DNA of 64,000 nucleotides from a virus (Duplodnaviria > Heunggongvirae > Uroviricota > Caudoviricetes). The stretch lies in the IMG/VR virus record IMGVR_UViG_3300042293_000433; one strand, written 5' to 3'. The notes beneath the pieces are model-generated. The model saw only the letters and a list, made by a program, of their open reading frames with translations. It did no database searches and was not told where the DNA came from. How positions within the stretch are numbered: the stretch's first letter is position 1; each line of letters opens with the position of its first letter. Position numbers and translations under genes: made by a program. Positions 1 to 16,131 of the stretch are shown piece by piece.

Positions 1-432
1 ATATCCACGTGTTGCGTATATGTGGTCTCTTACCCCATTCTCATTAATCATATGATTTACTATTACCCAACTATTTAAATTTGTTGAATACATATCTAAT
101 CTATGAAAATATGCTGGTAATTCTAATAACAATAGTAACTTATCTTTTTTATCCCAATTTCGTTTTACAAAATCAAAAGCTTCTCTAACTGCTCTACCAG
201 TTCCGCCACCACTCGCTGCTTTGTTTTCTACCTTACATCCCAACATATCTGCCAATCTACTAGCATATGTAACTTCTAATGTGTTATCCCACCATACATT
301 ATATTTTTCTTTATAAACATCACGTACTAATGTTACCTTATCATCTGCATATTTAATAGTTTCTAATCCGCCACCCGCACTATGTGAACATCCGGTTGCA
401 AATACTATTTCTATGTTATGTTTATTTGTCAT
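1..432 (-). CDS. SGNH/GDSL-like hydrolase family paralog (partial, C-terminus beyond window start)
   Basis: Manual translation from ATG at 432-430 gives MTNKHNIEIVFATGCSHSAGGG..., matching the GCSHSAG block-I motif of the paralogs at 2682..3476; no stop before position 1; start overlaps stop of 429..641 (ATGA). Confidence 0.5.
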   Translation of the reverse strand, partial: MTNKHNIEIVFATGCSHSAGGGLETIKYADDKVTLVRDVYKEKYNVWWDNTLEVTYASRLADMLGCKVENKAASGGGTGRAVREAFDFVKRNWDKKDKLLLLLELPAYFHRLDMYSTNLNSWVIVNHMINENGVRDHIYATRGY

Positions 433-641
433 ATGAATTTTTTACACCTTTCGATTGATTCGTTTTCTGCTCTTGCTTTTGCTCTATACATTATTCTAAC
501 AATAGCACCTAATTGTTCATCGGTTAAATCATCATCTAATATTATTTCTTTACGAATTAATAATGTTTCTTTAGCTTCCTCTGCCCATGCTATTATTTCT
601 TTTGCGTAATGTTTTTCCATATTAATTAAACCATTTATCAA
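429..641 (-). CDS. hypothetical protein
   Basis: 70-aa ORF in same-strand tightly packed array; stop overlaps next start. Confidence 0.4.
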   Translation of the reverse strand: MINGLINMEKHYAKEIIAWAEEAKETLLIRKEIILDDDLTDEQLGAIVRIMYRAKARAENESIERCKKFI

Positions 642-837
642 ATTCAGTTGGCTCTGGTCTGTCTACTTTATTTGTGGGTGTTTTCTTTTTAGGTGTTTGT
701 TTCTTTACAATAGTGGGATTTAATTCTGCTTTTAATTGAATTTTCTCTCTCATTGTTAAATCGGTCATTCTATGATATTGTTTTAAATCCAATGCCGAGT
801 CAACTATGTAATATCCATCCTTATCTTGCTTCAACAT
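622..837 (-). CDS. hypothetical protein (Lys/Pro-rich C-terminus)
   Basis: 71-aa ORF, minus-strand array. Confidence 0.4.
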   Translation of the reverse strand: MLKQDKDGYYIVDSALDLKQYHRMTDLTMREKIQLKAELNPTIVKKQTPKKKTPTNKVDRPEPTEFDKWFN

Positions 838-1102
838 TGCTTTCAGTTTTAATCATTTGTTTATGTATTCTCGCTGCTACTTCATACCATTCATTTGTTA
901 CACATACTTCTAACATATCGGGTAACATGCTTTCATCAAACTCTAATTCGTTTTGCTCATCAGTATTTTTTTCGTATAACTCAATAAGTTCATCCATCAC
1001 ACCTTCCATAAACTCACTATCCTTTAATGTGTTTATAAGTTGCTGCATAAATAACTTTCTTATCTCACCATCTCCTTTGTGCTTATCACGTCTGCTTTTC
1101 AT
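821..1102 (-). CDS. hypothetical protein
   Basis: 93-aa ORF, acidic, minus-strand array. Confidence 0.4.
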   Translation of the reverse strand: MKSRRDKHKGDGEIRKLFMQQLINTLKDSEFMEGVMDELIELYEKNTDEQNELEFDESMLPDMLEVCVTNEWYEVAARIHKQMIKTESNVEAR

Positions 1103-1103
1103 A

Positions 1104-1658
1104 TTAGTTATTGGTTGTATCGGTTAAAGGAACTATTGATTGTCTATTTGCATCACCATCACTTATAACTCTGATTGAATTGATTTCAGCTAAATCCGTT
1201 AAAGTGACCTTTTCTATATTAATACCCCACTCTTTAACTTTAGCACCAATTGTTTTTGTTAGTTCAACTTCAATATCAACCAGGTCTTCCCAATTCCTTT
1301 CCTCAATAATTTCTCTAATCATTGCACCGGTTGTATCTACTAATACATCAGTTGGGTGTGCTAACTTAGTTAAGAATAAATATGCATCTTCAATATCATA
1401 TCTAACAATTGCTCTTACTACTATGTTTCTATAATCTAATGATGTGATTGATTGTGGATGTAAATGTATTGATTGTGTTACAACGGTTTGATGCCATATT
1501 GAATCTACAAATGGTATTTTCCAATGTAGACCTGGATCTTTTATATCATTAAACTTACCAAATCTTAACACCAATGCTTTTTCCCACATATCCACTACAA
1601 ATACGGGCATTATTGAATGTCCAAATTGTTGTATTACTGCTATTAATTTATCAAACAT
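1104..1658 (-). CDS. SPFH/band-7 (stomatin/prohibitin-like) domain protein
   Basis: 184 aa; ALVLRFGKF...PGLHWKIPFVDSI...RAIVRYDIEDAYLF pattern typical of SPFH domain; TCGTATCTTTA motif 15 nt upstream. Confidence 0.6.
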   Translation of the reverse strand: MFDKLIAVIQQFGHSIMPVFVVDMWEKALVLRFGKFNDIKDPGLHWKIPFVDSIWHQTVVTQSIHLHPQSITSLDYRNIVVRAIVRYDIEDAYLFLTKLAHPTDVLVDTTGAMIREIIEERNWEDLVDIEVELTKTIGAKVKEWGINIEKVTLTDLAEINSIRVISDGDANRQSIVPLTDTTNN

Positions 1659-1672
1659 ATTCTTATTTTATA

Positions 1673-1683
1673 TAAAGATACGA
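1673..1683 (-). promoter_or_regulatory. conserved upstream motif TCGTATCTTTA (sense), candidate promoter element
   Basis: plus-strand taaagatacga; 15 nt upstream of ATG of 1104..1658; same motif recurs upstream of at least 7 other genes. Confidence 0.4.
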
Positions 1684-1776
1684 TAAATTTATGAGAATAC
1701 CAAATCCTATTGAGATTTTCTATTCTTAGCTTTTACATCAATAGTGCCTTTGGTATTAGTTTTACCAACTGAATTA

Positions 1777-2046
1777 TTAGCTACTACCTTGTTCTGCTTC
1801 TTCTTGTCCGACTTCATTATGTTCTGCAATAGGATGTCCTTTTGACTCATTGATTTGCTCATATTCTAAATCTTGTATTGTTTCTAAAAATATATAATCG
1901 TTGGATGTTTTAGGTCTTACTATGTAATCTGCTCCATAATATTCTTTTGCCAATTCCAAATCGTTTATTCGTTCACCATTGATTGTTTTTTTAACGATAT
2001 ATAATTTATCATTAAACCGCATCAATTGTCTATTGAATTGAAACAT
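1777..2046 (-). CDS. hypothetical protein
   Basis: 89-aa ORF. Confidence 0.4.
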   Translation of the reverse strand: MFQFNRQLMRFNDKLYIVKKTINGERINDLELAKEYYGADYIVRPKTSNDYIFLETIQDLEYEQINESKGHPIAEHNEVGQEEAEQGSS

Positions 2047-2047
2047 A

Positions 2048-2251
2048 TTATTTAGATTTTGTTTCTTTTGCTTTTTGCTCTGCTAAATAATCACCTAATA
2101 CTTTACTACCTCTCTTAGTAGTCATTAATTCTTTTTGTGAAACTCTTATACCATTACGATATACTCTTAATTCTAGCTCCTCACCATTTTTTAACATAAA
2201 GAAATGATATTCAGGCTTAAAGAATTGCTTTATTTTTCTAAATATATTCAT
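2048..2251 (-). CDS. hypothetical protein
   Basis: 67-aa ORF, basic. Confidence 0.35.
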   Translation of the reverse strand: MNIFRKIKQFFKPEYHFFMLKNGEELELRVYRNGIRVSQKELMTTKRGSKVLGDYLAEQKAKETKSK

Positions 2252-2281
2252 AGTTTAAATATACAATAAGTTATCCATTAT

Positions 2282-2320
2282 ACCAAACAAAAATAGGGGT
2301 ATTTTTTAATTACCCCTATT
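2282..2320 (-). terminator. rho-independent terminator (minus strand)
   Basis: 9-bp perfect stem ataggggta/tacccctat (2293-2301/2311-2319) followed on minus-strand RNA by UUUUUGUUUGG; lies just downstream of the 3' end of CDS 2343..2678. Confidence 0.5.
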
Positions 2321-2342
2321 ATTTAATATAAAATATATAATA

Positions 2343-2678
2343 TTATTCTGCTACTTCTTCTGTAATTTCCACAACTGGTCCAACACCTGTCTCATGTACA
2401 TCTTCAGGTGCAATACCATTCACATCTTTATCCCAAACAAAACAATATCCAGGGTTTGCTACTGATGCTGCTGATGCTTTTACTTTATCATTTGGAGTGA
2501 TAACTAAGTATCTGTCGGTTTCAAACTCATCCATACTTAACACATCTGCTGTGAATATAGTACCATCTTCATTTACTAATGTAACACCAACTTGTCCAGC
2601 TTGAAATAATGCTTCGTTTGCATCTGATAATTCTCTGAATCCAGCGTATTTAACTTCTCTTGTTATTAATTCTGACAT
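2343..2678 (-). CDS. hypothetical protein
   Basis: 111-aa ORF, acidic. Confidence 0.45.
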   Translation of the reverse strand: MSELITREVKYAGFRELSDANEALFQAGQVGVTLVNEDGTIFTADVLSMDEFETDRYLVITPNDKVKASAASVANPGYCFVWDKDVNGIAPEDVHETGVGPVVEITEEVAE

Positions 2679-2681
2679 TTT

Positions 2682-3476
2682 TTAATCTCCGTTTTCTTTT
2701 ATATAAGTATTATGATTTATGTAATTAAGTATGTTTTTGGCTATAAATTTATGTCCAATTTCTCCAAAATGTGAATCTTTTACTATCTTAGTAGTTTCAA
2801 ATTCAATAATTAAATCAGTATTCCAATCTATATGATTACTACATTCATATGCTGTTTCTACAATACCTCTATCACATTCAAATTTAATTAAATTAGGAAA
2901 ATCTAATATAGTTGTATTTTCTTTTATACACTGCTCTATATTTGGATAACTCCATAAAAATACATTCTTAGTTATATTACTTTTAATGTAATTTAATAGT
3001 GATAATATCATTACAACTGAATTTATTGATATCCAATCTTCAAAATCTAAGTGTGCCATATAAAATTGGCGGTATTTATCATTATCATATTTTAAACCAC
3101 CACCTGCTTGAAATGCAGTAGTTTCCCATTTTCCGTCATCATTTTTATATGGAACTTCGAATCTATGATAATGTGTTAATTGAAATAATATAACATCATT
3201 TTCTTTTATGTTCGGTAAATCTTTTAATAACTTTTTAAATTGTTGAGAATTACTATCACCACCTTCGGCTCTTAATATCCAATCCAATTTCAATTCATCT
3301 GCTATTATTTCAAAAAATGGTATTCCCTTTCTACCCAACCATTTGGTATATTCGGTTTCCATAAAATTAATGTCATCTTTTATTCTTGGTAATCCTGGAT
3401 CTTCAAAATGTGAATAACCTAATAGATTGCCGGCACTATGTGAACATCCATATATGTATAACTTATCCATTTTCAA
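2682..3476 (-). CDS. SGNH/GDSL-like hydrolase family paralog
   Basis: 264 aa; N-terminal LYIYGCSHSAGN (block I GxSxxxG-like) and C-terminal DSHFGEIGH (block V DxxH). Confidence 0.55.
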   Translation of the reverse strand: MKMDKLYIYGCSHSAGNLLGYSHFEDPGLPRIKDDINFMETEYTKWLGRKGIPFFEIIADELKLDWILRAEGGDSNSQQFKKLLKDLPNIKENDVILFQLTHYHRFEVPYKNDDGKWETTAFQAGGGLKYDNDKYRQFYMAHLDFEDWISINSVVMILSLLNYIKSNITKNVFLWSYPNIEQCIKENTTILDFPNLIKFECDRGIVETAYECSNHIDWNTDLIIEFETTKIVKDSHFGEIGHKFIAKNILNYINHNTYIKENGD

Positions 3477-4188
3477 AATGTTTTATTATATAATCTGCCC
3501 AAAGTTTATGACCAGGTTCACCAAAGTGTCCATCTGGAATGGTATTGTTTGTTTCTTGTGCTAATGCCATTTTATTATCATACATAAAAGAACTAAATTT
3601 AGTGTATTTATCTGGCATTAAAAATATATTTGCATCATCTACTTCTATTAAATCGTTATCATGTGTCCATACACACACATTATCACATACTGAATTTAAT
3701 AAATACTTTATTGCTTTAATTTCTCGAATTAATCTATCTTTGAATACTTTATTATTTCTATTTAGTATCACTCCTAATAATCCACTTTTGCTTAATCCAT
3801 ACATTTCAAATACATCATCCGGTGTTGTTGATATGCTACCTATATTAGTTGGTTGTAATACGTCATTTATTAGTATATCAAATCTTTCAAAGTAAGATAT
3901 TCCAATTATAATATAATCATTTTTATTTATATCTTTTATATGTGCAAATACACTATCAAATATCATTTCATTTGATGCACCACCTCTAGCCGTATTAACT
4001 AATTCTAAATTGAAATGGTTAGACACATAATCAGGATAGATTAGAATTTCTTCTCCATCCTGTTTATTTAAATATTTTCTATATGAAAGTGTGGTCGGTG
4101 AATATGGGTTTTCTTTAGGTGAACGAATACACCCATCACCTGCGGTAAAAGAATCACCGAAACACCATAATTTATTTTGTGTAACCAT
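3463..4188 (-). CDS. SGNH/GDSL hydrolase family paralog
   Basis: 241 aa; canonical GDSFTAGDG near N-terminus, DGHFGEPGH near C-terminus. Confidence 0.65.
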   Translation of the reverse strand: MVTQNKLWCFGDSFTAGDGCIRSPKENPYSPTTLSYRKYLNKQDGEEILIYPDYVSNHFNLELVNTARGGASNEMIFDSVFAHIKDINKNDYIIIGISYFERFDILINDVLQPTNIGSISTTPDDVFEMYGLSKSGLLGVILNRNNKVFKDRLIREIKAIKYLLNSVCDNVCVWTHDNDLIEVDDANIFLMPDKYTKFSSFMYDNKMALAQETNNTIPDGHFGEPGHKLWADYIIKHFENG

Positions 4189-4205
4189 TATTTAGTATTA
4201 ATATA

Positions 4206-4553
4206 CTACCATTCAATCAACTTAGCAATAGGCCATGCTGGATTTGAAATACTTACTAAATGTGCTTCTTCTACTAATCTTTCTTTTAATTCATCATCTT
4301 CGATGTCTAAAAAATTAACATGTTCGTATTTCACTAATTCGTCTTCAGCAATTGTTATTGTTGAAAATGTATTATCTTTATTTAATACAATAAGTCCAAA
4401 TAATTTTGCTTCTACTAATTCTACATTTCCAGCGTGCTCTAAAAATGGTTCAAATGCTTCTAAATTTATCATTTTGTTTTGTTTTATATAAATATATGTT
4501 TTTATTATTACAATGTAACTACACCACGTTTTTGTACAACTTTTGTTGCACAA
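4206..4553 (-). CDS. hypothetical protein
   Basis: 115-aa ORF. Confidence 0.4.
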   Translation of the reverse strand: MCNKSCTKTWCSYIVIIKTYIYIKQNKMINLEAFEPFLEHAGNVELVEAKLFGLIVLNKDNTFSTITIAEDELVKYEHVNFLDIEDDELKERLVEEAHLVSISNPAWPIAKLIEW

Positions 4554-5239
4554 TCATTTGCGTATTCAATACTAACTTCTATACTTTTTGTTTTTAAATA
4601 ACTAATTACTAATGAAGCCATAAAGGTATCACCTGCACCACTCAAATCTCTAACCTCAATATCGTTGTTAACCGGATATGTAATACCATCATACATTGCA
4701 CCTCGTTCACTCATTGTTATAATTAATCTTTCTCGCCACATTTCGTATTCCTGTCCTTTACAATTTTCCCACTCAACTTCATTTATCTTAATGAATGTAT
4801 AATTACGCATTTCTGCTGATAATGGTTTCTTTGTATCTATAAAAGTTAATGGATGTGAATCACTAATCAATTTCAAATCTGATAATGATAGAAATCCTTT
4901 GTCATAATCACTTACAATAACTGCATCATAATCATTGAATGGAACTCTTTTAACATCAAATGAATTGCTAACCTTATCATTACTGTCAATTCTGATAATC
5001 ATATGATTTGCTTTTTCCTCTACATATCTAGTCTTTGTAATTTGTTCTTTGTTAGTAACCAACTCAACTTTCTCAGCTCCCAACGATTTAAGATTAGCTA
5101 CTACATTACCACTCATACCCATATTGGTAATTGTTCTACTCGGTTCAAATATTGGCACAGGTCCTTCGGGACATAATCTTTTACAATAACCATATACAAA
5201 TACATCAGTACAACTATCACCGATAACTAAAACTTTCAT
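4508..5239 (-). CDS. hldA: D-glycero-beta-D-manno-heptose-7-phosphate kinase (HldE domain I / HldA-like, PfkB fold)
   Basis: 243 aa; VLVIGDSCTDVFVYG..RLCPEGPVPIF, GMSGNVVANLKSLGA, VIVSDYDKG, DLSGAGDTFMASL align by eye to E. coli HldE N-domain blocks (VVGDVMLDRYWYG..ISPEAPVPVV, GGAANVA, LSDYAKG, GAGDT). Confidence 0.8.
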   Translation of the reverse strand: MKVLVIGDSCTDVFVYGYCKRLCPEGPVPIFEPSRTITNMGMSGNVVANLKSLGAEKVELVTNKEQITKTRYVEEKANHMIIRIDSNDKVSNSFDVKRVPFNDYDAVIVSDYDKGFLSLSDLKLISDSHPLTFIDTKKPLSAEMRNYTFIKINEVEWENCKGQEYEMWRERLIITMSERGAMYDGITYPVNNDIEVRDLSGAGDTFMASLVISYLKTKSIEVSIEYANDCATKVVQKRGVVTL

Positions 5240-5907
5240 AATAACGATTTCCTATAAGTATTAATATATTCAAAAAAATGATTAGCCATTCGTTGATGTC
5301 CTAACTCATTAAAATGTTTATCAATATTACCATTCGGTTCTATAATATGTTGTTCCTCTAATTGGTCTTGCCACTTTGTATAAAACGAATAGTTTGTAAA
5401 TTCGTTTGTTGAATTGGGTGCCGGAATAAAGTTTATAATTTCTTTATATTTTTTAAAATCTGAATGGGTTTGTCCTTCCGCACTCCAATAGTAAATTGGT
5501 ATTTTATTTTTAATGCACCAATCATTTACCTGTTTCTTAAACCATTTGTAATTAACATTTCGCATTTCTATTAAATTATCTGCAAATGTTCCATGATGTT
5601 TTATAAAGTATGCCTCCAAATCTATTAATTGTGCTTTTGTTGGATAAATATTATACCTATCAAAAAATGTAAATTCAAATACAACCTTATCACCTGGTTG
5701 AATTTCATCTCGCCTATCTATGAATTGCAATATAGATACCCAATTACATTGTCCAGGATGTGCACTATTTACTAATTCTAAATCTAATTTATCCGCTAAT
5801 ACATACGGCCAACTAATTCTTAATTTATCTTCATCCAGTGGGTCAACTAAATTCATTCCAGTTGAAAATGAACATCCAAATACCCAAAGTTTATTTTTCA
5901 TTATCAT
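5236..5907 (-). CDS. SGNH/GDSL-like hydrolase family paralog
   Basis: 223 aa; KLWVFGCSFSTGMNL and DKHFNELGH; same architecture as 3463..4188. Confidence 0.55.
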   Translation of the reverse strand: MIMKNKLWVFGCSFSTGMNLVDPLDEDKLRISWPYVLADKLDLELVNSAHPGQCNWVSILQFIDRRDEIQPGDKVVFEFTFFDRYNIYPTKAQLIDLEAYFIKHHGTFADNLIEMRNVNYKWFKKQVNDWCIKNKIPIYYWSAEGQTHSDFKKYKEIINFIPAPNSTNEFTNYSFYTKWQDQLEEQHIIEPNGNIDKHFNELGHQRMANHFFEYINTYRKSLL

Positions 5908-6043
5908 TCCAATTTAAAAAATCTTCACCTTTGTAATCGGGATGATTTTCTTTCATATAGTCAATACCTCTTACCCAAAAAAATGAAACGATTGCAGCCA
6001 TTATAAAGCTGCAACCGATTCCTATTACATAACTCATTATCAT
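5891..6043 (-). CDS. small hydrophobic protein (50 aa)
   Basis: Manual translation MIMSYVIGIGCSFIMAAIVSFFWVRGIDYMKENHPDYK...; one predicted TM; fills the gap between two genes. Confidence 0.25.
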   Translation of the reverse strand: MIMSYVIGIGCSFIMAAIVSFFWVRGIDYMKENHPDYKGEDFLNWNDNEK

Positions 6044-6046
6044 ATA

Positions 6047-6757
6047 TTATTCTTTTATTTCTATTGAACTCCAATCATTTGTTTCACTGTCCCATATCCA
6101 AATAGGATTAGCTAATACATAACGAATGTTTAATAACGATGCATTCAAACTTATCATACCTTCTAGCGGCACTTCGGTTTCCTCTTTAATCATTCCACCA
6201 CATTCATGTATGTGTCCAAATACGTGGACCTTAGGGTGTATGTCGTTGATTCTATTGGCTAACATTTCACATCCAACATGGTAGTTGCCTCTTACACTTA
6301 CATCAAATCTACCATATCTCGGTGTATGTGTCACTAACAAATCTACACTTCCGTCCGTTGGAACTTTTTGCCATACTTCATCTAACTCTGCGTTTCTTTG
6401 TTTCATAAATGCCCACATACCGAATACAGGAGACCATGGGCTACCATAGATACCTAATCCATCAATGTTTATAAAACTATCTTCTAAATAGGTAACTCCA
6501 TAATTGTTTGCTAATAACCAATTACGCCTATCGGTTTGCTGTAACACAAAATCATGATTACCCGCTACTAATACTTTATGTTTTGCATTTTGTTTGCTAA
6601 ACCAATTCATAAATAAATCGGTTTCTTCAAACTCACCATAACGAGTACAATCCCCACTATGCACAATAATATCTACATAGGGTAACTCACCATATAATTC
6701 AGTAATCTCAAGATGTCTACCATGAGTGTCACTTAAAAACATTATTTTCATAACCAA
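6047..6757 (-). CDS. calcineurin-like metallophosphoesterase
   Basis: 236 aa; ordered MPP motifs LSDTHGRH (DxH), HSGDCTRYG (GD), AGNHD (GNHD), GHIHE (GH). Confidence 0.75.
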   Translation of the reverse strand: MVMKIMFLSDTHGRHLEITELYGELPYVDIIVHSGDCTRYGEFEETDLFMNWFSKQNAKHKVLVAGNHDFVLQQTDRRNWLLANNYGVTYLEDSFINIDGLGIYGSPWSPVFGMWAFMKQRNAELDEVWQKVPTDGSVDLLVTHTPRYGRFDVSVRGNYHVGCEMLANRINDIHPKVHVFGHIHECGGMIKEETEVPLEGMISLNASLLNIRYVLANPIWIWDSETNDWSSIEIKE

Positions 6758-7886
6758 TTAATTTATCTATTTCTAATATTGTATTTGTAGGATTAAAACT
6801 ATCCATTATAAACTTATAATTCTTTTCTAATCTTTGTTGAACACTATCCGATTCATATATTGCCTTAACTTTATCAATTGATAATTCATTGATTCGTTTT
6901 AAAGCATCTACAAATAGTTCTATTCTTTGTGTTTCCGTTTTATTATCATCCCAACCAATTTCTAATCCAAATACATCTTCAAATGTTTCTATTCCATATT
7001 GTCTCAATGCTGAGTTAAATCCATTACATTGTAAAGATAAGAATATATTTTTACATAACCAAGATCTAATTGTTTTTTCTGTTAATCTTAAATCATCCCC
7101 ACTATCACCACTGCTCTCAATAGTAAATGAAATATATGAATCTAATGAGTTTGTATTGATACTATCATACATATCATTTGTATCTGAACTTTGTATTTGT
7201 CCTAATGCTACCGCATCTTTGTTCTCATATATAAAAAACTCATTTACAAATTGATTTAAGTATTCGATATCAATTACTAAATCATCATTACCACTACGTC
7301 CCCCACCAGGTCTATTTCTATAATTAATAAAATCTTCTATTGTAGAGAGATTACCAAACGTATCTTTTTTTATTATATTACCAAAGGTATAATAACATTC
7401 GTTTAATTCAATACCTTTTTTTTTGAGCAATTCAAATATTTTAAGTCTTCGTAAATTTATAGACCTATTAAAGAAATTAAACTTCTTTGTTCTATTATTG
7501 TTTGGTATATATGCTACTTTTGAAAACAAGTTTGTAAATGGATAACATCTATTTTTAAATGATATATCATTTTCAATACTATACACATCTAAATGCGTTG
7601 TTAAGAAATATATAGTATGATTTGTATTTCTATTTTCTACAATTGCTTTACGCCTATGTTCATTACAATATTCATGTTTAATAAACAAAAATATATTTAA
7701 TTTTAAATTTGGATTTACTGATTCATTTATCTTATCGATTGTATCTAATGTAATAAATAATACATCATTATCTTTAAGATTATCAATAAAACTAAAATCA
7801 TTATATTGTAATTCTATAAGATTATACCCAATTGATTCAAAATATTTAAAGTCTAAACCATAAATAGAATCGTAATAAAATGTCAT
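6729..7886 (-). CDS. GT10-like (alpha-1,3-fucosyltransferase family) glycosyltransferase paralog
   Basis: 385 aa; FTIESS...LTEKTIRSWLCKNIFLSL resembles FucT motif FENS....YxTEK(L/F)W; shares this plus FNFFNR..RLKIFELL block with 22263..23360 and 23353..24609. Confidence 0.4.
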   Translation of the reverse strand: MTFYYDSIYGLDFKYFESIGYNLIELQYNDFSFIDNLKDNDVLFITLDTIDKINESVNPNLKLNIFLFIKHEYCNEHRRKAIVENRNTNHTIYFLTTHLDVYSIENDISFKNRCYPFTNLFSKVAYIPNNNRTKKFNFFNRSINLRRLKIFELLKKKGIELNECYYTFGNIIKKDTFGNLSTIEDFINYRNRPGGGRSGNDDLVIDIEYLNQFVNEFFIYENKDAVALGQIQSSDTNDMYDSINTNSLDSYISFTIESSGDSGDDLRLTEKTIRSWLCKNIFLSLQCNGFNSALRQYGIETFEDVFGLEIGWDDNKTETQRIELFVDALKRINELSIDKVKAIYESDSVQQRLEKNYKFIMDSFNPTNTILEIDKLIGYENNVFK

Positions 7887-7887
7887 T

Positions 7888-8085
7888 TTATATTTTTAAA
7901 TCTTTAATCGTATCAACTATATCTGCTTCATCTTTATATATTTCATATACCTTATCCAATGCGTCATTATAGGCCACTTCTGCTATTTTATGTGCATCAT
8001 CTAATTTAATATACGAAAATGTATCACCATCTTTGTTTTTAAGCGAAAGGAAGCCAGTTGCTTTTAATTTGTTTTCCCATTTCAT
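7888..8085 (-). CDS. hypothetical protein
   Basis: 65-aa ORF. Confidence 0.35.
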   Translation of the reverse strand: MKWENKLKATGFLSLKNKDGDTFSYIKLDDAHKIAEVAYNDALDKVYEIYKDEADIVDTIKDLKI

Positions 8086-8090
8086 ATGTA

Positions 8091-8260
8091 CTACTTTTTT
8101 GAATAAGTATCATCCTTTGTAAGTTTCCGTAATAAATCTTGCTGACCCTTTGTAAAATTACCCTTCTCAGTAAGATGTTTATCTAACGATTCTAATAATT
8201 TAAGTTTGCGAGTAAAGTAATCTCTCGCTTGTTCTAATAGTAATCTATCGTATCTACTCA
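8091..8260 (-). CDS. small hypothetical protein (56 aa)
   Basis: Manual translation MSRYDRLLLEQARDYFTRKLKLLESLDKHLTEKGNF...; fills a 180-bp gap. Confidence 0.25.
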
Positions 8261-8263
8261 TAG

Positions 8264-9469
8264 TTATTCAAATGTATTTGTTACTAAATTATATTTCCAT
8301 CGGTGCACTTTACCATTTACAATTATACCATCTAAATAATAAACATTATCTTTCTGATATAAATTTAATTTAAACATCCATGCTTTTGAATTGGTTTGAT
8401 AGGTTGTGATATTGGTTTCTTTGAACGTTTTATAGTTATCAGTTGTTTTATAAACATTTAATTGAAATCCATTATACCAATTAGTGCCACTATCAATTGT
8501 TCTATTTAATAGAATTTCCGTTGTACCATCATTATCAATATCCGCTGCTACAATATCCAATACTAATGCCCATCCATTTGAATTAGGTTCACAAATAATT
8601 GTATTGTTACTAAACTCATTATTGTTATTCCAAAATATAGTAGATTTAGAATATCTATTTGAATTTGGAAATCCCTCAAATCCAGTCATTATAATATCGG
8701 GTTGTGTATCTTTATTTACATCCAATATTTCAATTGTTATATAACCAGAAGTTCCATTATATTTCCAATCAGTTGCATTAAAACTACCATCACCACTACC
8801 ATATAAAACTTTAATATAATTACCTGCGGTTACAACAATATCAATGTTTCCATCTTTATTTAGGTCACCACTTGCACCACCATGCCAAAACTTTTTGCCA
8901 ATATCAGGTAATGTTCCTAATTTATATTTGCCTGTTTTTTTGTCACTCAATAACAATGTGTTTGTTTCACCTGGCCAATAATTATTATCTTCAAATCCAT
9001 GATTGATTAAAAATAAATCCGGCAAGCTATCATTATTAAAATCACCTACAATTGTTTTACGGGTGTTTTGATTACCATTATACTCTAATGGAAGCATACT
9101 ATTATCTTTTGTATAAGAGTTGCCATTATTAATAAACACATCCGGTTTTGTATTAAATTCACCATCTGAACTATATGGATAAAATATGTCTTCTCTACCA
9201 TCGTTATTCATATCCACATATACAAATCCCAAATTATTAGTTCCATTATATCTACCTATATTTTTAATGCCAAATGTATTTCTAAGTGAATCAATACTAA
9301 TAAATTTATTAGTATTTTTTAATTCATATGAGGTTTTGCCATAATATACAATTTTAGGTAATTCCGTTGGTATTATTGGTGTAACTACAATTGGTTTAAC
9401 GATTATTGGTGCAGTTTTAGAACATCCAAATAAGGTCACTACGATTAATGCTAATATAATTTTTTTCAT
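8264..9469 (-). CDS. lipoprotein with FG-GAP/VCBS-type repeats
   Basis: 401 aa; signal plus lipobox LFGCSK; repeated DxNxDGxxD(I/L) segments (DMNNDGREDIF, DFNNDSLPDLF, GDLNKDGNIDIVV, DVNKDTQPDIIM, DIDNDGTTEILL). Confidence 0.55.
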   Translation of the reverse strand: MKKIILALIVVTLFGCSKTAPIIVKPIVVTPIIPTELPKIVYYGKTSYELKNTNKFISIDSLRNTFGIKNIGRYNGTNNLGFVYVDMNNDGREDIFYPYSSDGEFNTKPDVFINNGNSYTKDNSMLPLEYNGNQNTRKTIVGDFNNDSLPDLFLINHGFEDNNYWPGETNTLLLSDKKTGKYKLGTLPDIGKKFWHGGASGDLNKDGNIDIVVTAGNYIKVLYGSGDGSFNATDWKYNGTSGYITIEILDVNKDTQPDIIMTGFEGFPNSNRYSKSTIFWNNNNEFSNNTIICEPNSNGWALVLDIVAADIDNDGTTEILLNRTIDSGTNWYNGFQLNVYKTTDNYKTFKETNITTYQTNSKAWMFKLNLYQKDNVYYLDGIIVNGKVHRWKYNLVTNTFE

Positions 9470-9472
9470 ATT

Positions 9473-9823
9473 TTAATTTTTAACAAATAACTGAATACCT
9501 ACTATTATAAATCCCAATGCTAAACACAATCCATTCTTTAAACTTAATGGCTCTTTGAATAGATAGTGTGACATCAATGTAAATATAATTACACCGATAC
9601 CAAATCCTAACAAACGGGAAGGCCATATCTGCCCACCAAACCCAGCTATGAATGAGTTTACACTTTGTATGTAAACCCATCCTAGTGGTAATGATGCTAA
9701 TATAACCAACCATTGATACTTCTCATACCAACCATATTTGTAACTACCTTGTAATTGTAAGAATGTACCAATCTGTCCTAAGATACCAAATAAGATACCT
9801 ATGATTATTTTATTATAATTCAT
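9473..9823 (-). CDS. small 4-TM membrane protein (paralog of 38261..38605)
   Basis: 116 aa, four hydrophobic segments; shared motif GFGGQIWPSRLLGF vs GFAGSMWSNRFLFF; overlapping ORF 9480..9713 treated as artefact. Confidence 0.5.
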   Translation of the reverse strand: MNYNKIIIGILFGILGQIGTFLQLQGSYKYGWYEKYQWLVILASLPLGWVYIQSVNSFIAGFGGQIWPSRLLGFGIGVIIFTLMSHYLFKEPLSLKNGLCLALGFIIVGIQLFVKN

Positions 9824-10442
9824 TTGTTATATATTTTCTTTTCAAAATACATTCGTAATAATCCACAACCTCATCTTTGCCATCTTTACTACGAACCCAT
9901 TTTTGTCCAAATTCTTTTTTACATTGTTCTATTCTCTCTCTCTTTGATTTGGTTTTATCGGTATGATTTTTATAATATAACCAACTTGTCCAATAGTGGT
10001 CGTGGTAAGGACTATAAATTGTTATTGCTATTTGATAACCAAAGAATACAAATGATAAAACAGGATTCCATTCAAATCTATAATCCTTATCATTCCATTT
10101 TGTTTTCCAGCCCAACCCACAATAACTGAAGCCTACTTTAAGTGGTACTGCAAAGTTATAGTTTTTCTTTTCTTCAAATAACTCCTCAAAAGATTTTATC
10201 TTACGTGCATATTGAGGATTTAATGCATTGTATTTCTTTTGTGCTGCTATTTCCGATGTAACGGCTGCAGTTATCAGTTTATTATTTCCTTTAACCCATT
10301 TTCTAGGAAAGAAATAAGGAACACCTATTGCTATTTTACCGGCATAGAAACCAACTTTAAATGGTTTGAATGGTGCGTTTAATATTCCCAACCAACTGAA
10401 ACGATTTATTAAGTATTTTAATTCAAATTTTAACTTATTCAT
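9813..10442 (-). CDS. hypothetical protein
   Basis: 209-aa ORF, aromatic-rich. Confidence 0.45.
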   Translation of the reverse strand: MNKLKFELKYLINRFSWLGILNAPFKPFKVGFYAGKIAIGVPYFFPRKWVKGNNKLITAAVTSEIAAQKKYNALNPQYARKIKSFEELFEEKKNYNFAVPLKVGFSYCGLGWKTKWNDKDYRFEWNPVLSFVFFGYQIAITIYSPYHDHYWTSWLYYKNHTDKTKSKRERIEQCKKEFGQKWVRSKDGKDEVVDYYECILKRKYITNEL

Positions 10443-10443
10443 A

Positions 10444-10968
10444 TTACCTATTTAATTTTGTTATACATTCATCAATCTTATTTCTTAACTTACCTTTGAA
10501 TTGCATTTCACCATTTACTTTTACGTGTCTCCATTGTGGGATATTCATAAACTTAAAGTGTAATGCTACATTCAAATCATCAATTGCTATCCAATTACTA
10601 ATCTTATTATCTTTAACCCACTTTGCTATTTGTGCCGCTCGCATATAATCATTTGAACATCTACTCATCTTATACCACAGGTATTGATATGTTGTTGTAT
10701 CAATTAAGTGTGAACGATGTATTCCGTAGTGTTGAAAGATTGCTCCCATCTGGTCAAATGAAAAATGATTTCTCCAATCTGAGCTTAATACTAATTTTGC
10801 ATTTGTTTCATCTAATATAGTTTTCAATGCTTCACATTCCGGTATATCCCAAGCGTATGGTATTGTAAACGGCTTAACTATTCCTTCATCAATAGTAACA
10901 ATTCCATCACCCCAACTTCCCCAAGATAAAGGTCCATCTACATCTATGAATATTATTTTTTGTCTCAT
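10444..10968 (-). CDS. HAD-superfamily phosphatase-like protein
   Basis: 174 aa; N-terminal FIDVDGPL (HAD motif I DxDG), later IAIDDLN (motif IV-like). Confidence 0.5.
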   Translation of the reverse strand: MRQKIIFIDVDGPLSWGSWGDGIVTIDEGIVKPFTIPYAWDIPECEALKTILDETNAKLVLSSDWRNHFSFDQMGAIFQHYGIHRSHLIDTTTYQYLWYKMSRCSNDYMRAAQIAKWVKDNKISNWIAIDDLNVALHFKFMNIPQWRHVKVNGEMQFKGKLRNKIDECITKLNR

Positions 10969-10971
10969 AAC

Positions 10972-11277
10972 TTATTTGTTTGTTATTATATCGTAATCGT
11001 ACACTATTTCATTTAAGAATTTAATAAAACTAAATGGGTCAACCAATGTTTTAGAATCTATATCATATCTAATTGATTTACCACCATCTACTGCTAATCG
11101 TCCTTTAAATTTGTTTTTATCAAATTCATCTCTATCAAGTGTATATGAACAATCATTATCATAATTTTCATGTACAAAATTAAATCTATAAAAATCAGGT
11201 TCAGTTTGTATTTTCTTTATCTCAACCTGCATTGCATTGATTGGATATAACTTATCTATGTTTTTTATTGTTAGCAT
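10972..11277 (-). CDS. MLTIKNI-family small protein (paralog 1)
   Basis: 101 aa; N-terminus MLTIKNIDKL; DNA at start identical over ~22 nt to 12859..13182. Confidence 0.5.
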   Translation of the reverse strand: MLTIKNIDKLYPINAMQVEIKKIQTEPDFYRFNFVHENYDNDCSYTLDRDEFDKNKFKGRLAVDGGKSIRYDIDSKTLVDPFSFIKFLNEIVYDYDIITNK

Positions 11278-11278
11278 A

Positions 11279-11596
11279 TTATCTTACTTTTATTGGTTTT
11301 CTATATTTTTCTATTAAATAAATTATATCCGATATCAGTATTGATTTATTTTCCACAATAGTATTGGAAATCTTAAAGTATTTTGTTGGACTATATCTTA
11401 TACTATATTTACCCCCATCACGTTCTTTCATCAAGTCAATTCGGAAATATCTATTAATATCCGTATCTAAAACTGCAAATGAATATGAATTGGTAAAATC
11501 CTTAACTGAATGTATTTTATATTTGCCCAGTACTTCACCTATTACTTTATCTATATTGTGTATCTTTAGCATATTATTCGTATTCGTTTCTGTCAA
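11279..11596 (-). CDS. MLTIKNI-family small protein (paralog 2, N-extended)
   Basis: 105 aa; internal MLKIHNIDKVIG after a 9-aa extension. Confidence 0.45.
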   Translation of the reverse strand: MTETNTNNMLKIHNIDKVIGEVLGKYKIHSVKDFTNSYSFAVLDTDINRYFRIDLMKERDGGKYSIRYSPTKYFKISNTIVENKSILISDIIYLIEKYRKPIKVR

Positions 11597-12713
11597 TATT
11601 AATTACATATGGAAAACGGGGTATACCATCAGGTGTTAAATTAAAATACTTAATCGTTGCTTGCTTACCGATTAGTTTCTTTTTACTCTTTAACATCTCA
11701 GCCGTTTCATCCCAAGTTCCTTTTACATTTGATTTGAAAGGTTTACCATCAATCGTTTCAAATACCATATAACCAGCAGTTCCAGTTCTATTACCTTCAC
11801 CCTCTACGATATCTAAAATAGTATATTCATCATCAACAAACGATTTATGTTTTAATAAGTTCTTACTTCGTTTGTTTTCATACTTACCATTCGTTCTTAA
11901 CATCTGACCTTCGTAACCTTTCTCTACATACCCACCATATAATTCCATAACTTCATCTTCATTATCAACTTTATATGTTTGTACTATTCTACAATACTTA
12001 CCTACTTGTGAAAATGTTTCAAATAGTATTCCTAAATCATACATTCTTTTTACAAAGTTATTATCTGAACTAGGTAAATCGTATATGTGATACTCTATAC
12101 TTTTTTCACTTTCAATTAAATCCTCTTTAGTTGGTTTTGTTTTTTTAACCAAAGATACAATCTTATTGAAATCATTAGCGAACTTATCGGCATATAACTC
12201 ACCATCTAATATCAAATCAGGATTCATTACAAATACATGCCATAAGCTATACATGATATGTTGCGCTGAAAGAATAGGTTTACCATTTCTGCTAAACATA
12301 CCATCTTTTGTCACTATACAACGAATACCATCTAACTTAGCTTGCGAATAAATTGGATATGTAACCTTATCTTTACTATCTTCCCATTTAGCGGCTAACA
12401 TTGGTTCAAAGTATTGTGTTTTGTTTATGTGTTTGATATTCTCAAAGTAACCACTCTCTAACTTCTTTGTTCGTTTAGCTACCGCCTCTGCCATCGTTTG
12501 TTCTTTATCCGTAGTTTCATTTGCTCTACCAATATTCTTACCATAACAAATTGTCCACTCATTCGTAGTAATAGCACCGCCAACTTGTCCACTATGGGTT
12601 CGGTATTTATTACCTACTACTTCAATTGTCCATTCTTGCGTTGCACCGGTCTTTGTTTTTTTGTAAATAGTTTCTAATTTCATATTATAAATTTTTGTTA
12701 TATTAGGAGTCAT
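11574..12713 (-). CDS. lig: ATP-dependent DNA ligase
   Basis: 379 aa; adenylation motif I KLDGIRCIV (KxDG), YEGQMLR and downstream nucleotidyltransferase/OB-like blocks; true start may be the second ATG (12683) because the first 30 nt belong to a duplicated leader. Confidence 0.85.
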   Translation of the reverse strand: MTPNITKIYNMKLETIYKKTKTGATQEWTIEVVGNKYRTHSGQVGGAITTNEWTICYGKNIGRANETTDKEQTMAEAVAKRTKKLESGYFENIKHINKTQYFEPMLAAKWEDSKDKVTYPIYSQAKLDGIRCIVTKDGMFSRNGKPILSAQHIMYSLWHVFVMNPDLILDGELYADKFANDFNKIVSLVKKTKPTKEDLIESEKSIEYHIYDLPSSDNNFVKRMYDLGILFETFSQVGKYCRIVQTYKVDNEDEVMELYGGYVEKGYEGQMLRTNGKYENKRSKNLLKHKSFVDDEYTILDIVEGEGNRTGTAGYMVFETIDGKPFKSNVKGTWDETAEMLKSKKKLIGKQATIKYFNLTPDGIPRFPYVINIDRNEYE

Positions 12714-12753
12714 TCTCTCGACTCAATACATAAAGATACGACTTTATATTGGA
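12681..12753 (-). repeat. 73-bp duplicated 5' leader (copy A; copy B at 21569..21641)
   Basis: 70/73 identical to 21569..21641; sense strand ends exactly at an ATG and contains TCGTATCTTTA plus a GAGTC/GACTC inverted repeat. Confidence 0.8.
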
Positions 12754-12790
12754 TTGGCAATGCCCTAAGTGAACTAATTTTGAAAGTTTT

Positions 12791-12812
12791 TATTGGGAAT
12801 CAACGAGTTACG
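12791..12812 (-). promoter_or_regulatory. operator-like palindromic element (variant copy)
   Basis: plus-strand tattgggaatcaacgagttacg; matches 22-bp consensus cattgaTaatcaatTagttaRg at 16/22 (three length-conserved, weaker variant copies exist). Confidence 0.35.
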
Positions 12813-12858
12813 CCAATATAACCCTAACATATTAGGTATTTTTAATATATGATACCTA

Positions 12859-13182
12859 TTATTTAAAATTATAGTTATCCAATTTTGCCAAACATTTAGT
12901 TATCATAACTGCCAAATCGGCTGCACTTCTAACATCTGAATTATCTATTTCGACTTCGGTAGCTGCTGCCCATCCCATAACATATAGTTTATAATTACCT
13001 TGTGGTTTTTTATCTCTGTCTAAATAAACTTCACAATCCGGTTTGCCCGCACCATCATCTTTAAATACAAATACATAAGAATCATAATTCATTCTTTGAT
13101 TATGTAGATTATAAAATTCTTTTATGGTTCGGCTATTACACGTATAACCAACCATTTTTTCTATGTTTTTTATTGTTAGCAT
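12859..13182 (-). CDS. MLTIKNI-family small protein (paralog 3)
   Basis: 107 aa; MLTIKNIEKM. Confidence 0.5.
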   Translation of the reverse strand: MLTIKNIEKMVGYTCNSRTIKEFYNLHNQRMNYDSYVFVFKDDGAGKPDCEVYLDRDKKPQGNYKLYVMGWAAATEVEIDNSDVRSAADLAVMITKCLAKLDNYNFK

Positions 13183-13183
13183 G

Positions 13184-13483
13184 TTATATTAATTCATCTA
13201 TTAAAAATCGGATAAAGATATCTCTATCCCCTATACTCTCTATTGGTAGGTAGTGTCTATTACCTGTCTCTTGGCAATACATAAGATAATCACCATTGGA
13301 TGTCTTAACCCTACCAATGCTAAAGTTAAACATATCAAAGGGTGAGCCATTATGTACTACTTTAATAAGATAGTTATCCTTCGACTTAGTCACATAGTGT
13401 ATCTTCCAATGGCCAACGTATGTCCCCGTAAGAGAATCTATGTTTTTTATTGTAAGCATATTATAATTTTTCAAGTTTAGCAA
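13184..13483 (-). CDS. MLTIKNI-family small protein (paralog 4, N-extended)
   Basis: 99 aa; MLNLKNYNMLTIKNIDSL: the motif occurs twice; DNA around second Met near-identical to paralogs 1 and 3. Confidence 0.45.
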   Translation of the reverse strand: MLNLKNYNMLTIKNIDSLTGTYVGHWKIHYVTKSKDNYLIKVVHNGSPFDMFNFSIGRVKTSNGDYLMYCQETGNRHYLPIESIGDRDIFIRFLIDELI

Positions 13484-13724
13484 TTACATCCATTACATCT
13501 TCGGGTCTTAAATAACCAAGTACATCATTCGTAATCGGCGTATCGTAACATATTTCACCATCTTTGAAAATAGCTAATTCATACAATCCGATATCACCAC
13601 CATACGAGTGCGGACTTTGTACTACTGATACTTCATATCCATTATCTAATTTAGTTCTACTTACAATACCAAAATCAGCACCCATAGGGTTTGTTTTAAA
13701 TTCAATATCTTTAAATGTTTTCAT
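13461..13724 (-). CDS. hypothetical protein
   Basis: 87-aa ORF. Confidence 0.4.
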   Translation of the reverse strand: MKTFKDIEFKTNPMGADFGIVSRTKLDNGYEVSVVQSPHSYGGDIGLYELAIFKDGEICYDTPITNDVLGYLRPEDVMDVIAKLEKL

Positions 13725-13777
13725 AATTTGTTTTATTTAATCTATAAAGGTAGTTAATTTTTCTGATACTACCAAAT

Positions 13778-14128
13778 CTATTTATATGCTTTAATAGGTT
13801 TAATTTTCATTTGCCAATTATTGTTACCCGCCATTTGGCATATCATATAACCAAACCAATCTTTGTTTTTAATACAATTCAAAGTCACTTCGGTTCTTAA
13901 ATGAGATGCGTGTGTTTGATACATAACATAGTTACCACTATATTTTGCACTACTATCCCTTAATAAAGTAAATCCAATATAATCTTGTATTGTTCCATTT
14001 CCTTTTGTCAATGAAACTGTTATTGCATACTTTTCCGTACCTTCGTTTATATCCTCAATAGATAATGTATAACCATCACATTCAATATAATCACCTTTAA
14101 GTTCATTATAGTTTTTAATATTTAACAT
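13778..14128 (-). CDS. MLTIKNI-family small protein (paralog 5, divergent)
   Basis: 116 aa; MLNIKNYNELKG. Confidence 0.4.
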   Translation of the reverse strand: MLNIKNYNELKGDYIECDGYTLSIEDINEGTEKYAITVSLTKGNGTIQDYIGFTLLRDSSAKYSGNYVMYQTHASHLRTEVTLNCIKNKDWFGYMICQMAGNNNWQMKIKPIKAYK

Positions 14129-14131
14129 ACA

Positions 14132-14659
14132 CTATGGTTTAAGTAGTTTAATATGTTTACACGTTTGTGGTGTTTCTTTACTATATTGGTATGCAGGACA
14201 AGTACAACTCCAGTCACTCGTACCCAATACATTTTCTGTCACTTGATATAATAAATTAGGACCTGATTGACTTGCTACACTATGTATAATTTCGGTTAAT
14301 GTCATATCAGTCATGCCCATTGTATCAGGTTGTACCACTTCTAAATTAACTTTATTTGCCACATCATACATACTATCGATAACAAATTCCTTAAATCGTT
14401 CTATTGTTAGAATTGAATCTTTTACGATAGGTATATTTTCATGTATATACCAACCATCCATACCATCACCGATTGCACATATTTTAACATTATATTGGTT
14501 TTTATCCCAATTCATTTCAAACAATACACAATTACTCCAACTTCCGTCGTGTACTTGTTGAACAAAGAATCCCTCTTTACATACATCAATTTCAATTTCA
14601 GTATTTCCAAATTTAATTTTTTCGTTATCTACTTTGTGAAAGTTTTCTGGCTTTTTCAT
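14132..14659 (-). CDS. SWIM zinc-finger protein
   Basis: 175 aa; C-terminal WSCTCPAYQYSKETPQTCKHI = CxCx(n)CxH SWIM signature. Confidence 0.5.
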   Translation of the reverse strand: MKKPENFHKVDNEKIKFGNTEIEIDVCKEGFFVQQVHDGSWSNCVLFEMNWDKNQYNVKICAIGDGMDGWYIHENIPIVKDSILTIERFKEFVIDSMYDVANKVNLEVVQPDTMGMTDMTLTEIIHSVASQSGPNLLYQVTENVLGTSDWSCTCPAYQYSKETPQTCKHIKLLKP

Positions 14660-15060
14660 ATTTTATAAATTTTAATTTTTGTTAATTTAGTTTGTTTATC
14701 GTTTGCTCCAATTAATATATCAATTCGTTTCTTATATCGTTTGTTCATTACATCGTGAACTCTATATGTACCATCATATTTACCGGCACCAACAATTCTA
14801 ATCTTTTGTCCAAACTTATATTTCTTTTTTAAATCTCTACTAACTGCAATAATTCTATGTTTCTTTGGATTAGTAATCTTAAATCCACTCGCAGTTATAT
14901 TTGGTGTACTATCCGTTTCGGCTGCATTTGCTTTATATGTGGTTAGTGTCACTATTTCGGGAGTAATCGTTTCAATCATTGTGTTGATTCTTAATTCCTC
15001 TCGTTCCATTTCGTAAGGTAAACATACCATTGCGATTGCTAGTATTATATTGTAATTCAT
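14656..15060 (-). CDS. 3D-domain protein (MltA/YocH-like, putative cell-wall hydrolase/lysis-associated)
   Basis: 134 aa; N-terminal hydrophobic segment; ITASGFKI..RIIAVSRDL..FGQKIRIVGAGKYDGTYRVHDVMNKRYKKRIDILI fits 3D-domain pattern (tAsG..iAv..fG.ki.i.g.G.y.v.D.g..i.g..iDi). Confidence 0.45.
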   Translation of the reverse strand: MNYNIILAIAMVCLPYEMEREELRINTMIETITPEIVTLTTYKANAAETDSTPNITASGFKITNPKKHRIIAVSRDLKKKYKFGQKIRIVGAGKYDGTYRVHDVMNKRYKKRIDILIGANDKQTKLTKIKIYKI

Positions 15061-15063
15061 AAC

Positions 15064-15420
15064 TTATAATAATTTAGGTGTCCATTCATCCGTTAGTAAT
15101 TTAAGTTTGTCCATTAGACTATCCATATTGACAATATCTTCATGCTTTATCCAATAGGGATATCTTACACAATATGCTTCATTACTCCATTTTCCAATTG
15201 TATAATAACCATCCGATATAGCTGATGGGTTAAGTTCTACCGGCCTTCTATTTAATATAATGATATGTCTCATATTACCTCGCCATACATTAATTCTATA
15301 TTCATCTCTCCTTTCATCAATATCCTCAATGTAGTTTTTATCATCCCATTCTTTACGGAATAGTTTTTCAAAGTTCTTAATTGTTAGTTTCATAATATTT
15401 TCTTTTATGTCTTTCTTCAA
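15064..15420 (-). CDS. MLTIKNI-family small protein (paralog 6, N-extended)
   Basis: 118 aa; MKKDIKENIMKLTIKNFEKL. Confidence 0.4.
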   Translation of the reverse strand: MKKDIKENIMKLTIKNFEKLFRKEWDDKNYIEDIDERRDEYRINVWRGNMRHIIILNRRPVELNPSAISDGYYTIGKWSNEAYCVRYPYWIKHEDIVNMDSLMDKLKLLTDEWTPKLL

Positions 15421-16113: not shown

Positions 16114-16131
16114 AACTTATTGTTTTTAATT

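Follow-up and report, generated by a model that had tools for sequence, protein, structure and literature searches.

Genes for the synthesis of ADP-heptose are already known from phages: cyanomyophages and pelagimyophages carry genes annotated as 'rfaE', heptose kinase or epimerase (PMC7378029, PMC7029224). In addition, the phage cluster 'contig 53', which comprises a kinase/HAD fusion, a nucleotidyltransferase (NT) of the cytidylyltransferase fold and a GT-B glycosyltransferase, was shown to heptosylate 5-hydroxymethylcytosine (5hmC) in DNA (bioRxiv 10.1101/2023.12.21.572611), a demonstration that heptose is activated by phages for purposes of their own. Direct homologues of the genes considered here, with the same five-gene composition, are found in the 'LPS gene' clusters (LPS, lipopolysaccharide) of the T4-like cyanophages P-SSM2 (gp309–gp313), S-SM2, S-CAM1 and P-TIM68. 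The order in P-SSM2 is gp309 (NT), gp310 (kinase), gp311, gp312 and gp313.

The DNA analysed here, hereafter the window, is a 64-kb stretch of the virus record IMGVR_UViG_3300042293_000433 (Caudoviricetes), in which an HldA-like kinase gene is located at 4508..5239 and an HldC-like NT gene at 34364..34780, the latter beside the genes of a small HAD phosphatase and a single-domain metal cupin. It is fairly probable that a conserved viral route to nucleotide-activated heptose is encoded in the window by dispersed genes, with the cupin as its isomerase. The initial annotation of this DNA had proposed ADP-heptose synthesis encoded by a mobile element; the genes are indeed present, and such genes in phages are not new in themselves. 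What is new is a five-gene viral operon without GmhA, the proposal of a cupin in place of GmhA, and the correction of two database labels.

The window belongs to an AT-rich jumbo-phage lineage from aquatic (marine) metagenomes. Its GC content is 28–35%, its coding sequence lies almost entirely on the minus strand, and its phage-type genes include those of a DNA ligase, a PD-(D/E)XK nuclease and a GP88-family protein. A megablast search with 12 kb of the window found no nucleotide-level match to cultured phages. Near-identical copies of its kinase and cupin are present in metagenomic contigs of 204–249 kb, and related IMG/VR viral contigs reach 330 kb. The five open reading frames (ORFs) named in the initial annotation (kinase, NT, cupin, HAD and ferredoxin) have exact coordinates and are all on the minus strand. 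The co-directional block that it described is as stated, with overlaps of 4 nt between HAD (34777..35145) and NT, 26 nt between NT and cupin (34027..34389), and 4 nt between cupin and the 2x[4Fe-4S] ferredoxin (33713..34030). Pfam scans covered 50 window proteins, and the Pfam-based negative results given below for the window refer to these.

Kinase, nucleotidyltransferase and phosphatase

The kinase is a compact PfkB protein of 243 amino acids that matches Pfam PfkB with an E-value of 1.7e-12. Its top NCBIfam model is TIGR02198 (rfaE_dom_I; E 1e-33, 116.8 bits), and the next unrelated model, ribokinase, reaches only 32.6 bits. The sole match in a PDB sequence search was Burkholderia HldA (4e84), and the AlphaFold2 (AF2) model adopts the PfkB fold with HldA as its top structural neighbour, so that profile and fold searches both place the protein closer to HldA than to other PfkB kinases. 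The GAGD anion hole with the catalytic Asp (G201-A-G-D204-T-F) and the NxxE residues N153 and E156 are invariant. Judged by its sequence, the kinase is HldA-like, not a proven orthologue, and would phosphorylate C1 of heptose-7-phosphate.

The NT (138 amino acids) matches Pfam CTP_transf_like (PF01467; E 1.6e-18) and phrog_7878, has a cytidylyltransferase-like fold, and contains the HxGH motif (H13-L-G-H16) and a C-terminal motif of the S-T-T type (G-F-S-S-T-N, residues 119–124). Its best model is TIGR02199 (rfaE_dom_II) with 123.2 bits, against 84.1 bits for TagD. It is likewise HldC-like by similarity rather than a proven orthologue, and is proposed to act as a heptose-1-phosphate adenylyltransferase, which makes ADP the putative nucleotide carrier. 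These scores bear out the initial annotation, which had aligned 4508..5239 with the kinase domain and 34364..34780 with the adenylyltransferase domain of HldE; neither the ribokinase family nor TagD claims these proteins, and a heptose context does exist. In related loci an HldD-like 6-epimerase shares the operon, and for the clustered epimerase of P-SSM2, gp313, the HldD equivalog TIGR02197 gives 210 bits against 52 bits for GalE, which argues for heptose rather than hexose.

The third protein, a cap-less HAD phosphatase of 122 amino acids, is a proposed GmhB analogue that would remove the 7-phosphate of heptose-1,7-bisphosphate. Its motif I is intact (D14-x-D16-G-T) and T57 of motif II (the T of 'TAR') is conserved. 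Profile searches returned weak, generic Cof, HAD-IIIA and HAD-IIB matches, all below cut-offs, and no GmhB equivalog match among the NCBIfam and Pfam models scanned; the P-SSM2 homologue matches the EcbF-BcbF capsule phosphatase model with 35 bits. The suggestion of the initial annotation that this HAD stands in for GmhB therefore receives support from gene context, namely clustering with the kinase in related loci and a 257-aa NT-HAD fusion in locus L096 (10687..11460; HldC-like NT at residues 15–142, HAD at 152–253), and none from the equivalog models. The HAD gene behaves as a swapped cassette: the window protein and its counterpart in L164 (9299..9613), both with DxDGT, are only 31% identical, while the flanking proteins p79, NT and cupin are 100%, 96% and 99% identical. 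A second HAD of the window (10444..10968) was considered as GmhB and rejected, being of the HAD_SAK_2 RNA-repair type and encoded beside a DNA ligase.

Conservation of the module and absence of SIS-type GmhA

The genes for kinase, NT, small HAD and cupin, often with that of the HldD-like 6-epimerase, tend to cluster in about 190 related viral loci. IMG/VR was searched with the cupin as anchor (80 loci) and separately with a kinase alignment (80 loci, out of at least 576 confirmed matches), and every locus was scored with family hidden Markov models over retrievable flanks of +/-10 kb. A kinase and/or NT gene adjoins the cupin gene in 33 of the 80 cupin-anchored loci, and L003, L005, L006, L012, L031 and L082 present an overlapping, co-directional operon of cupin-HAD-NT-kinase-HldD. 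Within the kinase-anchored set, the cupin is present in 42 of 80 loci and all five genes lie within 10 kb in 25 of 80; gene order is heavily permuted and the genes nevertheless stay together. Counted over all 113 kinase loci, NT is found in 72, cupin in 69 and HAD in 48. A profile search of genome contigs with the cupin returned one locus, L083 (JACAFS010000024.1), a 15-kb contig of a 'Thaumarchaeota archaeon' metagenome-assembled genome (MAG). It is binned as archaeal, holds a complete viral module (several short-chain dehydrogenases/reductases (SDRs), HAD, cupin, kinase and NT), and is possibly of viral origin, its assignment to the MAG then being a binning error.

In the relatives, the HldD-like 6-epimerase would give the L,D form of the heptose, and further tailoring enzymes are added. 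The islands around the module contain a 4,6-dehydratase (a GDP-mannose-dehydratase-like SDR), an RmlC-type epimerase and a DegT aminotransferase, together with split thiamine pyrophosphate (TPP) E1/transketolase subunits and a B12-binding radical SAM enzyme (L089, L113, L149, L079 and L148). The position of the module in such large nucleotide-sugar tailoring islands suggests highly modified heptoses.

No SIS-type GmhA accompanies the module. A tblastn search with an E. coli GmhA query found none in the window at E <= 1, as the initial annotation had stated, and the same query found none in any of the 80 kinase-anchored loci (0/80) or in the complete genomes of module-bearing cyanophages. The query does recover known phage GmhA genes, in phage Cr30 of Caulobacter and in a small number of others.

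The cupin as a candidate isomerase

The cupin, a 120-aa single-domain protein, matches Cupin_2, and its AF2 model (predicted local distance difference test score 87.9) is an all-beta barrel. Its H-x-H...E...H metal site is formed by the invariant H42, H44 and E49 and the near-invariant H89; S40 and K47 are also invariant, and the KGWGxE segment and the C-terminal STxHFDxDSYR segment are conserved. Across loci it is 64–80% identical, more than any other protein of the module. Apart from generic cupin models and Polysacc_synt_C (19 of 35 family members), the only families matched by many members at E <= 0.01 are isomerases, D-lyxose isomerase PF07385 in 32 of 35 and mannose-6-phosphate isomerase PF01050 in 27 of 35. 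The window cupin itself stays below the Pfam gathering thresholds of both (Lyx_isomer 20.1 against 20.8; MannoseP_isomer 18.2 against 23.6). None of the 35 members matches the models of RmlC (PF00908), FdtA or cysteine dioxygenase (CDO). A 112-aa single-cupin mannose-6-phosphate isomerase (PMI), 7zvy, is a close structural neighbour; the family profile returned only generic, insignificant cupin matches among PDB sequences. In type I and II PMIs the motif S-x-Q-x-H-x-x-R contains phosphate-binding, catalytic and metal-binding residues (PMC9602691), and S40-x-H42-x-H44-x-x-K47 of the cupin lines up with it in our own alignment.

GmhA converts a ketose phosphate into a manno-configured aldose phosphate, the same C1/C2 chemistry as the conversion of fructose 6-phosphate (F6P) to mannose 6-phosphate (M6P), one carbon longer. 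Considering the metal site, the likeness to PMIs and lyxose isomerases, this shared chemistry and the missing SIS-type GmhA, the cupin is proposed to supply the isomerase step, in which it would turn sedoheptulose-7-phosphate into heptose-7-phosphate in place of the SIS-fold enzyme. It appears to be the likely missing sedoheptulose-7-phosphate isomerase, an assignment drawn from sequence and gene context.

Another cupin subfamily, whose members are about 220 aa long and more like PMIs, adjoins the HAD in L100, L124 and L151, with a fourth member in L126. The cysteines of the cupin family form a further pattern: C27 is invariant, C8 and C37 are conserved in at least 90% of members, and an N-terminal CxxC occurs in many members (window residues 7–8, 27 and 37). 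Such residues might bind a second metal ion in a structural role or pair as disulfides.

Database labels of the HAD and cupin families

The cyanophage homologues are 44% (NT, P-SSM2 gp309), 34–44% (kinase; 39–44% in the clusters named above) and 45–51% (cupin) identical to the window proteins. When the P-SSM2 labels were taken at face value, the 'phosphoheptose isomerase' did not match the cupin and the second 'nucleotidyltransferase' matched neither NT nor HAD, while the cross-pairs did match, exposing the mislabels: gp311, annotated 'phosphoheptose isomerase', is a small HAD related to that of the window, and gp312, annotated 'nucleotidyltransferase', is a cupin 45% identical to that of the window. 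The same labels recur in PHROGs (phrog_1238 and phrog_7851), GenBank and RefSeq, including L001 (6719..7400), where the HAD is called 'phosphoheptose isomerase' and the cupin 'cysteine dioxygenase' or 'nucleotidyltransferase'. As for the CDO label of RefSeq and PHROGs, no CDO model is matched by the cupin, and true CDOs have a three-His metal site without the motif-1 Glu. These names are propagated misannotations that our sequence analyses do not support, and at present they hide the real architecture of the pathway in phage databases.

The split arrangement and the ferredoxin

The initial annotation described the pathway as split. The 29-kb separation of kinase and NT is a lineage-specific rearrangement and not a design feature, since the closest outgroups are contiguous and the halves are seen apart in the lineage of the window. 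In the closest outgroup phages (L004, L007, L008, L009 and L011), whose cupin and kinase are 75–80% and 58–59% identical to those of the window, kinase, NT and cupin genes are adjacent. In L084, whose synteny with the window spans 425..16136, the kinase keeps its position and neither NT nor cupin lies within 10 kb, and L164–L168 retain HAD-NT-cupin-ferredoxin with no kinase nearby.

The 105-aa dicluster ferredoxin, recognised by Fer4 and FdxA-like models, does lie beside the nucleotide-sugar genes as described, a position that the initial annotation had found unexplained. Among the cupin-anchored loci and the window its family is a singleton, without a homologue in the clustered loci, and only the near-identical population contigs L164–L168 have it together with the cupin. 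A functional link to the pathway was thus rejected, as it occurs only in the immediate population of the window phage and in no other module locus; the ferredoxin is probably a lineage-specific neighbour outside the module.

Five SGNH/GDSL-like paralogues with an N-terminal G-x-S are encoded in the window (2682..3470, 3463..4188, 5236..5907, 39399..40247 and 42807..43649). Three of them flank the kinase, and related families occur beside the heptose module elsewhere, for example at 10745..11527 in L004. A role as sugar O-acyl esterases or transferases is possible.

Weighing of the alternatives

Several observations weigh against a heptose pathway with the cupin as isomerase. The kinase falls far short of the curated TIGR02198 equivalog cut-off of 345 bits and is about 70 residues shorter than HldA, its 243 aa comparing with about 315 model positions; the NT is likewise below the TIGR02199 cut-off of 181.5. 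The HAD has NN at motif IV, where relatives have the Mg-binding DD, and lacks a clear motif III Lys. There is no GT9 heptosyltransferase among the window proteins scanned. No cupin was found within 10 kb in 44 of the 113 kinase loci, and conversely 47 cupin loci (L028 to L082; 'class B'), with cupins 64–71% identical to that of the window, have no kinase or NT nearby, although flanks of at least 8 kb on either side are available for just 6 of the 47, and module genes can be as far as 29 kb apart, as in the window; their neighbours are an AAA_28 P-loop protein, a T4-type large terminase and a portal-sized protein (for example L028, 706..2303). Finally, a partial SIS-domain ORF lies 9 kb away from the complete cupin module of L013, at the edge of the contig. 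The low scores and the truncated form of the kinase, together with the TagD score of the NT, its matches to ECT and TagD structures and the lack of HldD in the window, could mean that a different sugar or polyol phosphate is activated, such as a mannose-derived ADP-hexose or a CDP-alditol, the HldE-like scores then reflecting shared ancestry only. This explanation is improbable, considering the large margin over every alternative equivalog, HldA as the best structural and only PDB sequence match of the kinase, and the HldD-like 6-epimerase, an enzyme in need of a C6-C7 side chain, in the same operon in related loci.

For the cupin, the serious rival is a plain PMI role. In that case kinase, HAD and NT would make ADP-heptose, the first step would be left to host GmhA or to a SIS gene elsewhere, and the cupin would be an ordinary mannose-6-phosphate isomerase (F6P <-> M6P), that is, an independent gene of carbon metabolism or GDP-mannose supply. 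The specific profile matches of the cupin to PF01050 and PF07385, the reported abundance of viral MPI-type genes as auxiliary metabolic genes in marine viromes (PMC9602691), the 47 kinase-less cupin loci, the GDP-mannose-dehydratase-like SDRs in the same islands and the SIS fragment of L013 all fit this reading. However, the cupin is translationally coupled to HAD and NT in dozens of loci despite their shuffled order, complete module-bearing cyanophage genomes contain no SIS-type GmhA, marine Synechococcus LPS contains no heptose, and neither phosphomannomutase nor GDP-mannose pyrophosphorylase is among the recurrent families annotated in the loci, so we regard it as unlikely, though less so than any other rival. 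The initial annotation had suggested a heptose-modifying epimerase as in Campylobacter, and a tailoring role on nucleotide-heptose (C3 or C3/C5 epimerase, or keto-isomerase on ADP-heptose) would find possible suppliers of keto-sugars in the dehydratase-type SDRs and aminotransferases of the islands, and a comparable mode of action in the cupin domain of S. aureus CapF. It is nevertheless very unlikely: the cupin has a metal site, unlike the metal-independent RmlC-like epimerases of about 180 aa, no family member matches RmlC or FdtA, and 42 related loci have, apart from the cupin, a true RmlC-type gene (PF00908, 113 bits), which is why the cupin is read as an isomerase rather than an epimerase. 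Moreover, the window contains no homologue of the HldD-like SDR of the module, and none of the scanned proteins matched an SDR family able to supply a keto intermediate; the closest outgroups have their nearest SDR-type gene about 5 kb away, outside the operon, and a core step would account for the top conservation of the cupin better than a variable tailoring step.

The broader form of the isomerase proposal is advanced tentatively, at somewhat less than even chance: the cupin would represent a new, non-homologous class of sedoheptulose-7-phosphate isomerase, giving hundreds of marine phages, among them phages of hosts that make no heptose, fully host-independent ADP-heptose for a phage-specific use, be it heptosylation of a virion protein, of a host surface glycan or of phage DNA. 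The LPS of the marine Synechococcus strains WH8102 and CC9311 contains neither heptose nor 3-deoxy-D-manno-oct-2-ulosonic acid (Kdo) (PMC4515613). Phages that infect WH8102 nevertheless carry the module, which makes a self-sufficient phage pathway plausible and a boost to the host LPS core unlikely for these phages. As to DNA as a target, no markers of DNA glycosylation (hmC synthesis, TET-like oxygenases) were found among the scanned window proteins. If the cupin is the isomerase, it would be a non-orthologous replacement of GmhA, and the first committed step of heptose synthesis would exist in two unrelated folds; a large, globally distributed set of marine phages would then make ADP-heptose from a central metabolite without help from the host, which raises the question of what phages use heptose for in hosts with heptose-free LPS. 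No paper that ties a cupin to phage heptose synthesis, to GmhA or to the isomerisation of sedoheptulose came up in literature searches.

Other genes of the window

A 134-aa protein encoded at 21862..22266 (minus strand) has no Pfam, NCBIfam or PHROG match, and its homologues travel with the module in 41 of the 113 kinase loci. In L004 and L008 the homologue immediately follows the cupin; in the window the gene is displaced by 12 kb. The 'many glycosyltransferases' of the initial annotation correspond to a minus-strand block at 45725..51813 with three GT2 and two GT4-like genes; as candidate consumers of the nucleotide-sugar, these genes (45.7–51.8 kb) may serve the putative heptose acceptor, although those scanned there gave no match to a GT9 heptosyltransferase family.

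Elsewhere in the window, a MoxR/CbbQ-type AAA+ ATPase gene is followed by that of a 714-aa partner without a Pfam match (28430..31982), and 32695..33132 encodes a protein with a cREC_REC (cyclic-phosphate processing receiver) domain; all three are kept in L164–L168. At 57829..60087 the window encodes a 752-aa TonB-dependent receptor-like protein (Plug and outer-membrane beta-barrel), amid several predicted lipoproteins or secreted proteins at 53–62 kb. At least six paralogous proteins of about 100 aa with the N-terminus MLTIKNI(D/E)K form an array at 10972..15393, which is interrupted by the ATP-dependent DNA ligase gene (11574..12713) and adjoins the gene of the HAD_SAK_2 protein mentioned above.

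Comparison with known systems

The pathway resembles the canonical ADP-heptose route in a PfkB kinase closest to HldA, an NT closest to HldC, a cap-less HAD and, in the relatives, an HldD-like SDR. As with HldA and HldC of Burkholderia, kinase and NT are not fused. In contrast to the canonical route, the window HAD belongs to a different small subfamily outside the GmhB equivalogs, and the place of the SIS-fold GmhA is taken by the 120-aa metal cupin.

Among the phage systems, 'contig 53' differs in its kinase, which is APH-like and fused to the HAD rather than of the PfkB type, and in its upstream steps, which are provided by E. coli (bioRxiv 10.1101/2023.12.21.572611). It acts on 5hmC, whereas no hmC-forming enzyme was found among the scanned window proteins. 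Caulobacter phage Cr30 is similar in carrying heptose kinase and epimerase-type (HldD-like SDR) genes beside a GT2 gene, and has a complementary arrangement, with a SIS-type GmhA one small ORF (153 nt) downstream of the annotated heptose kinase and no cupin. Although the cyanophage clusters share all five genes, the window comes from an unrelated jumbo-phage lineage without a nucleotide-level match among cultured phages.

The cupin itself is best compared with cupin sugar isomerases (PF01050, PF07385 and the minimal PMI of Thermococcus kodakarensis, 7zvy). It differs from PF01050 and PF07385 in its scores below the Pfam thresholds and its location in a heptose rather than a mannose operon, and the N-terminal Cys-rich segment and the C-terminal STxHFDxDSYR are peculiar to its family. 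Like these enzymes, it is a single small metal cupin barrel and has the S-x-(Q/H)-x-H-x-x-(R/K) positions in common with them, and they catalyse an aldose-ketose interconversion that gives the manno configuration.

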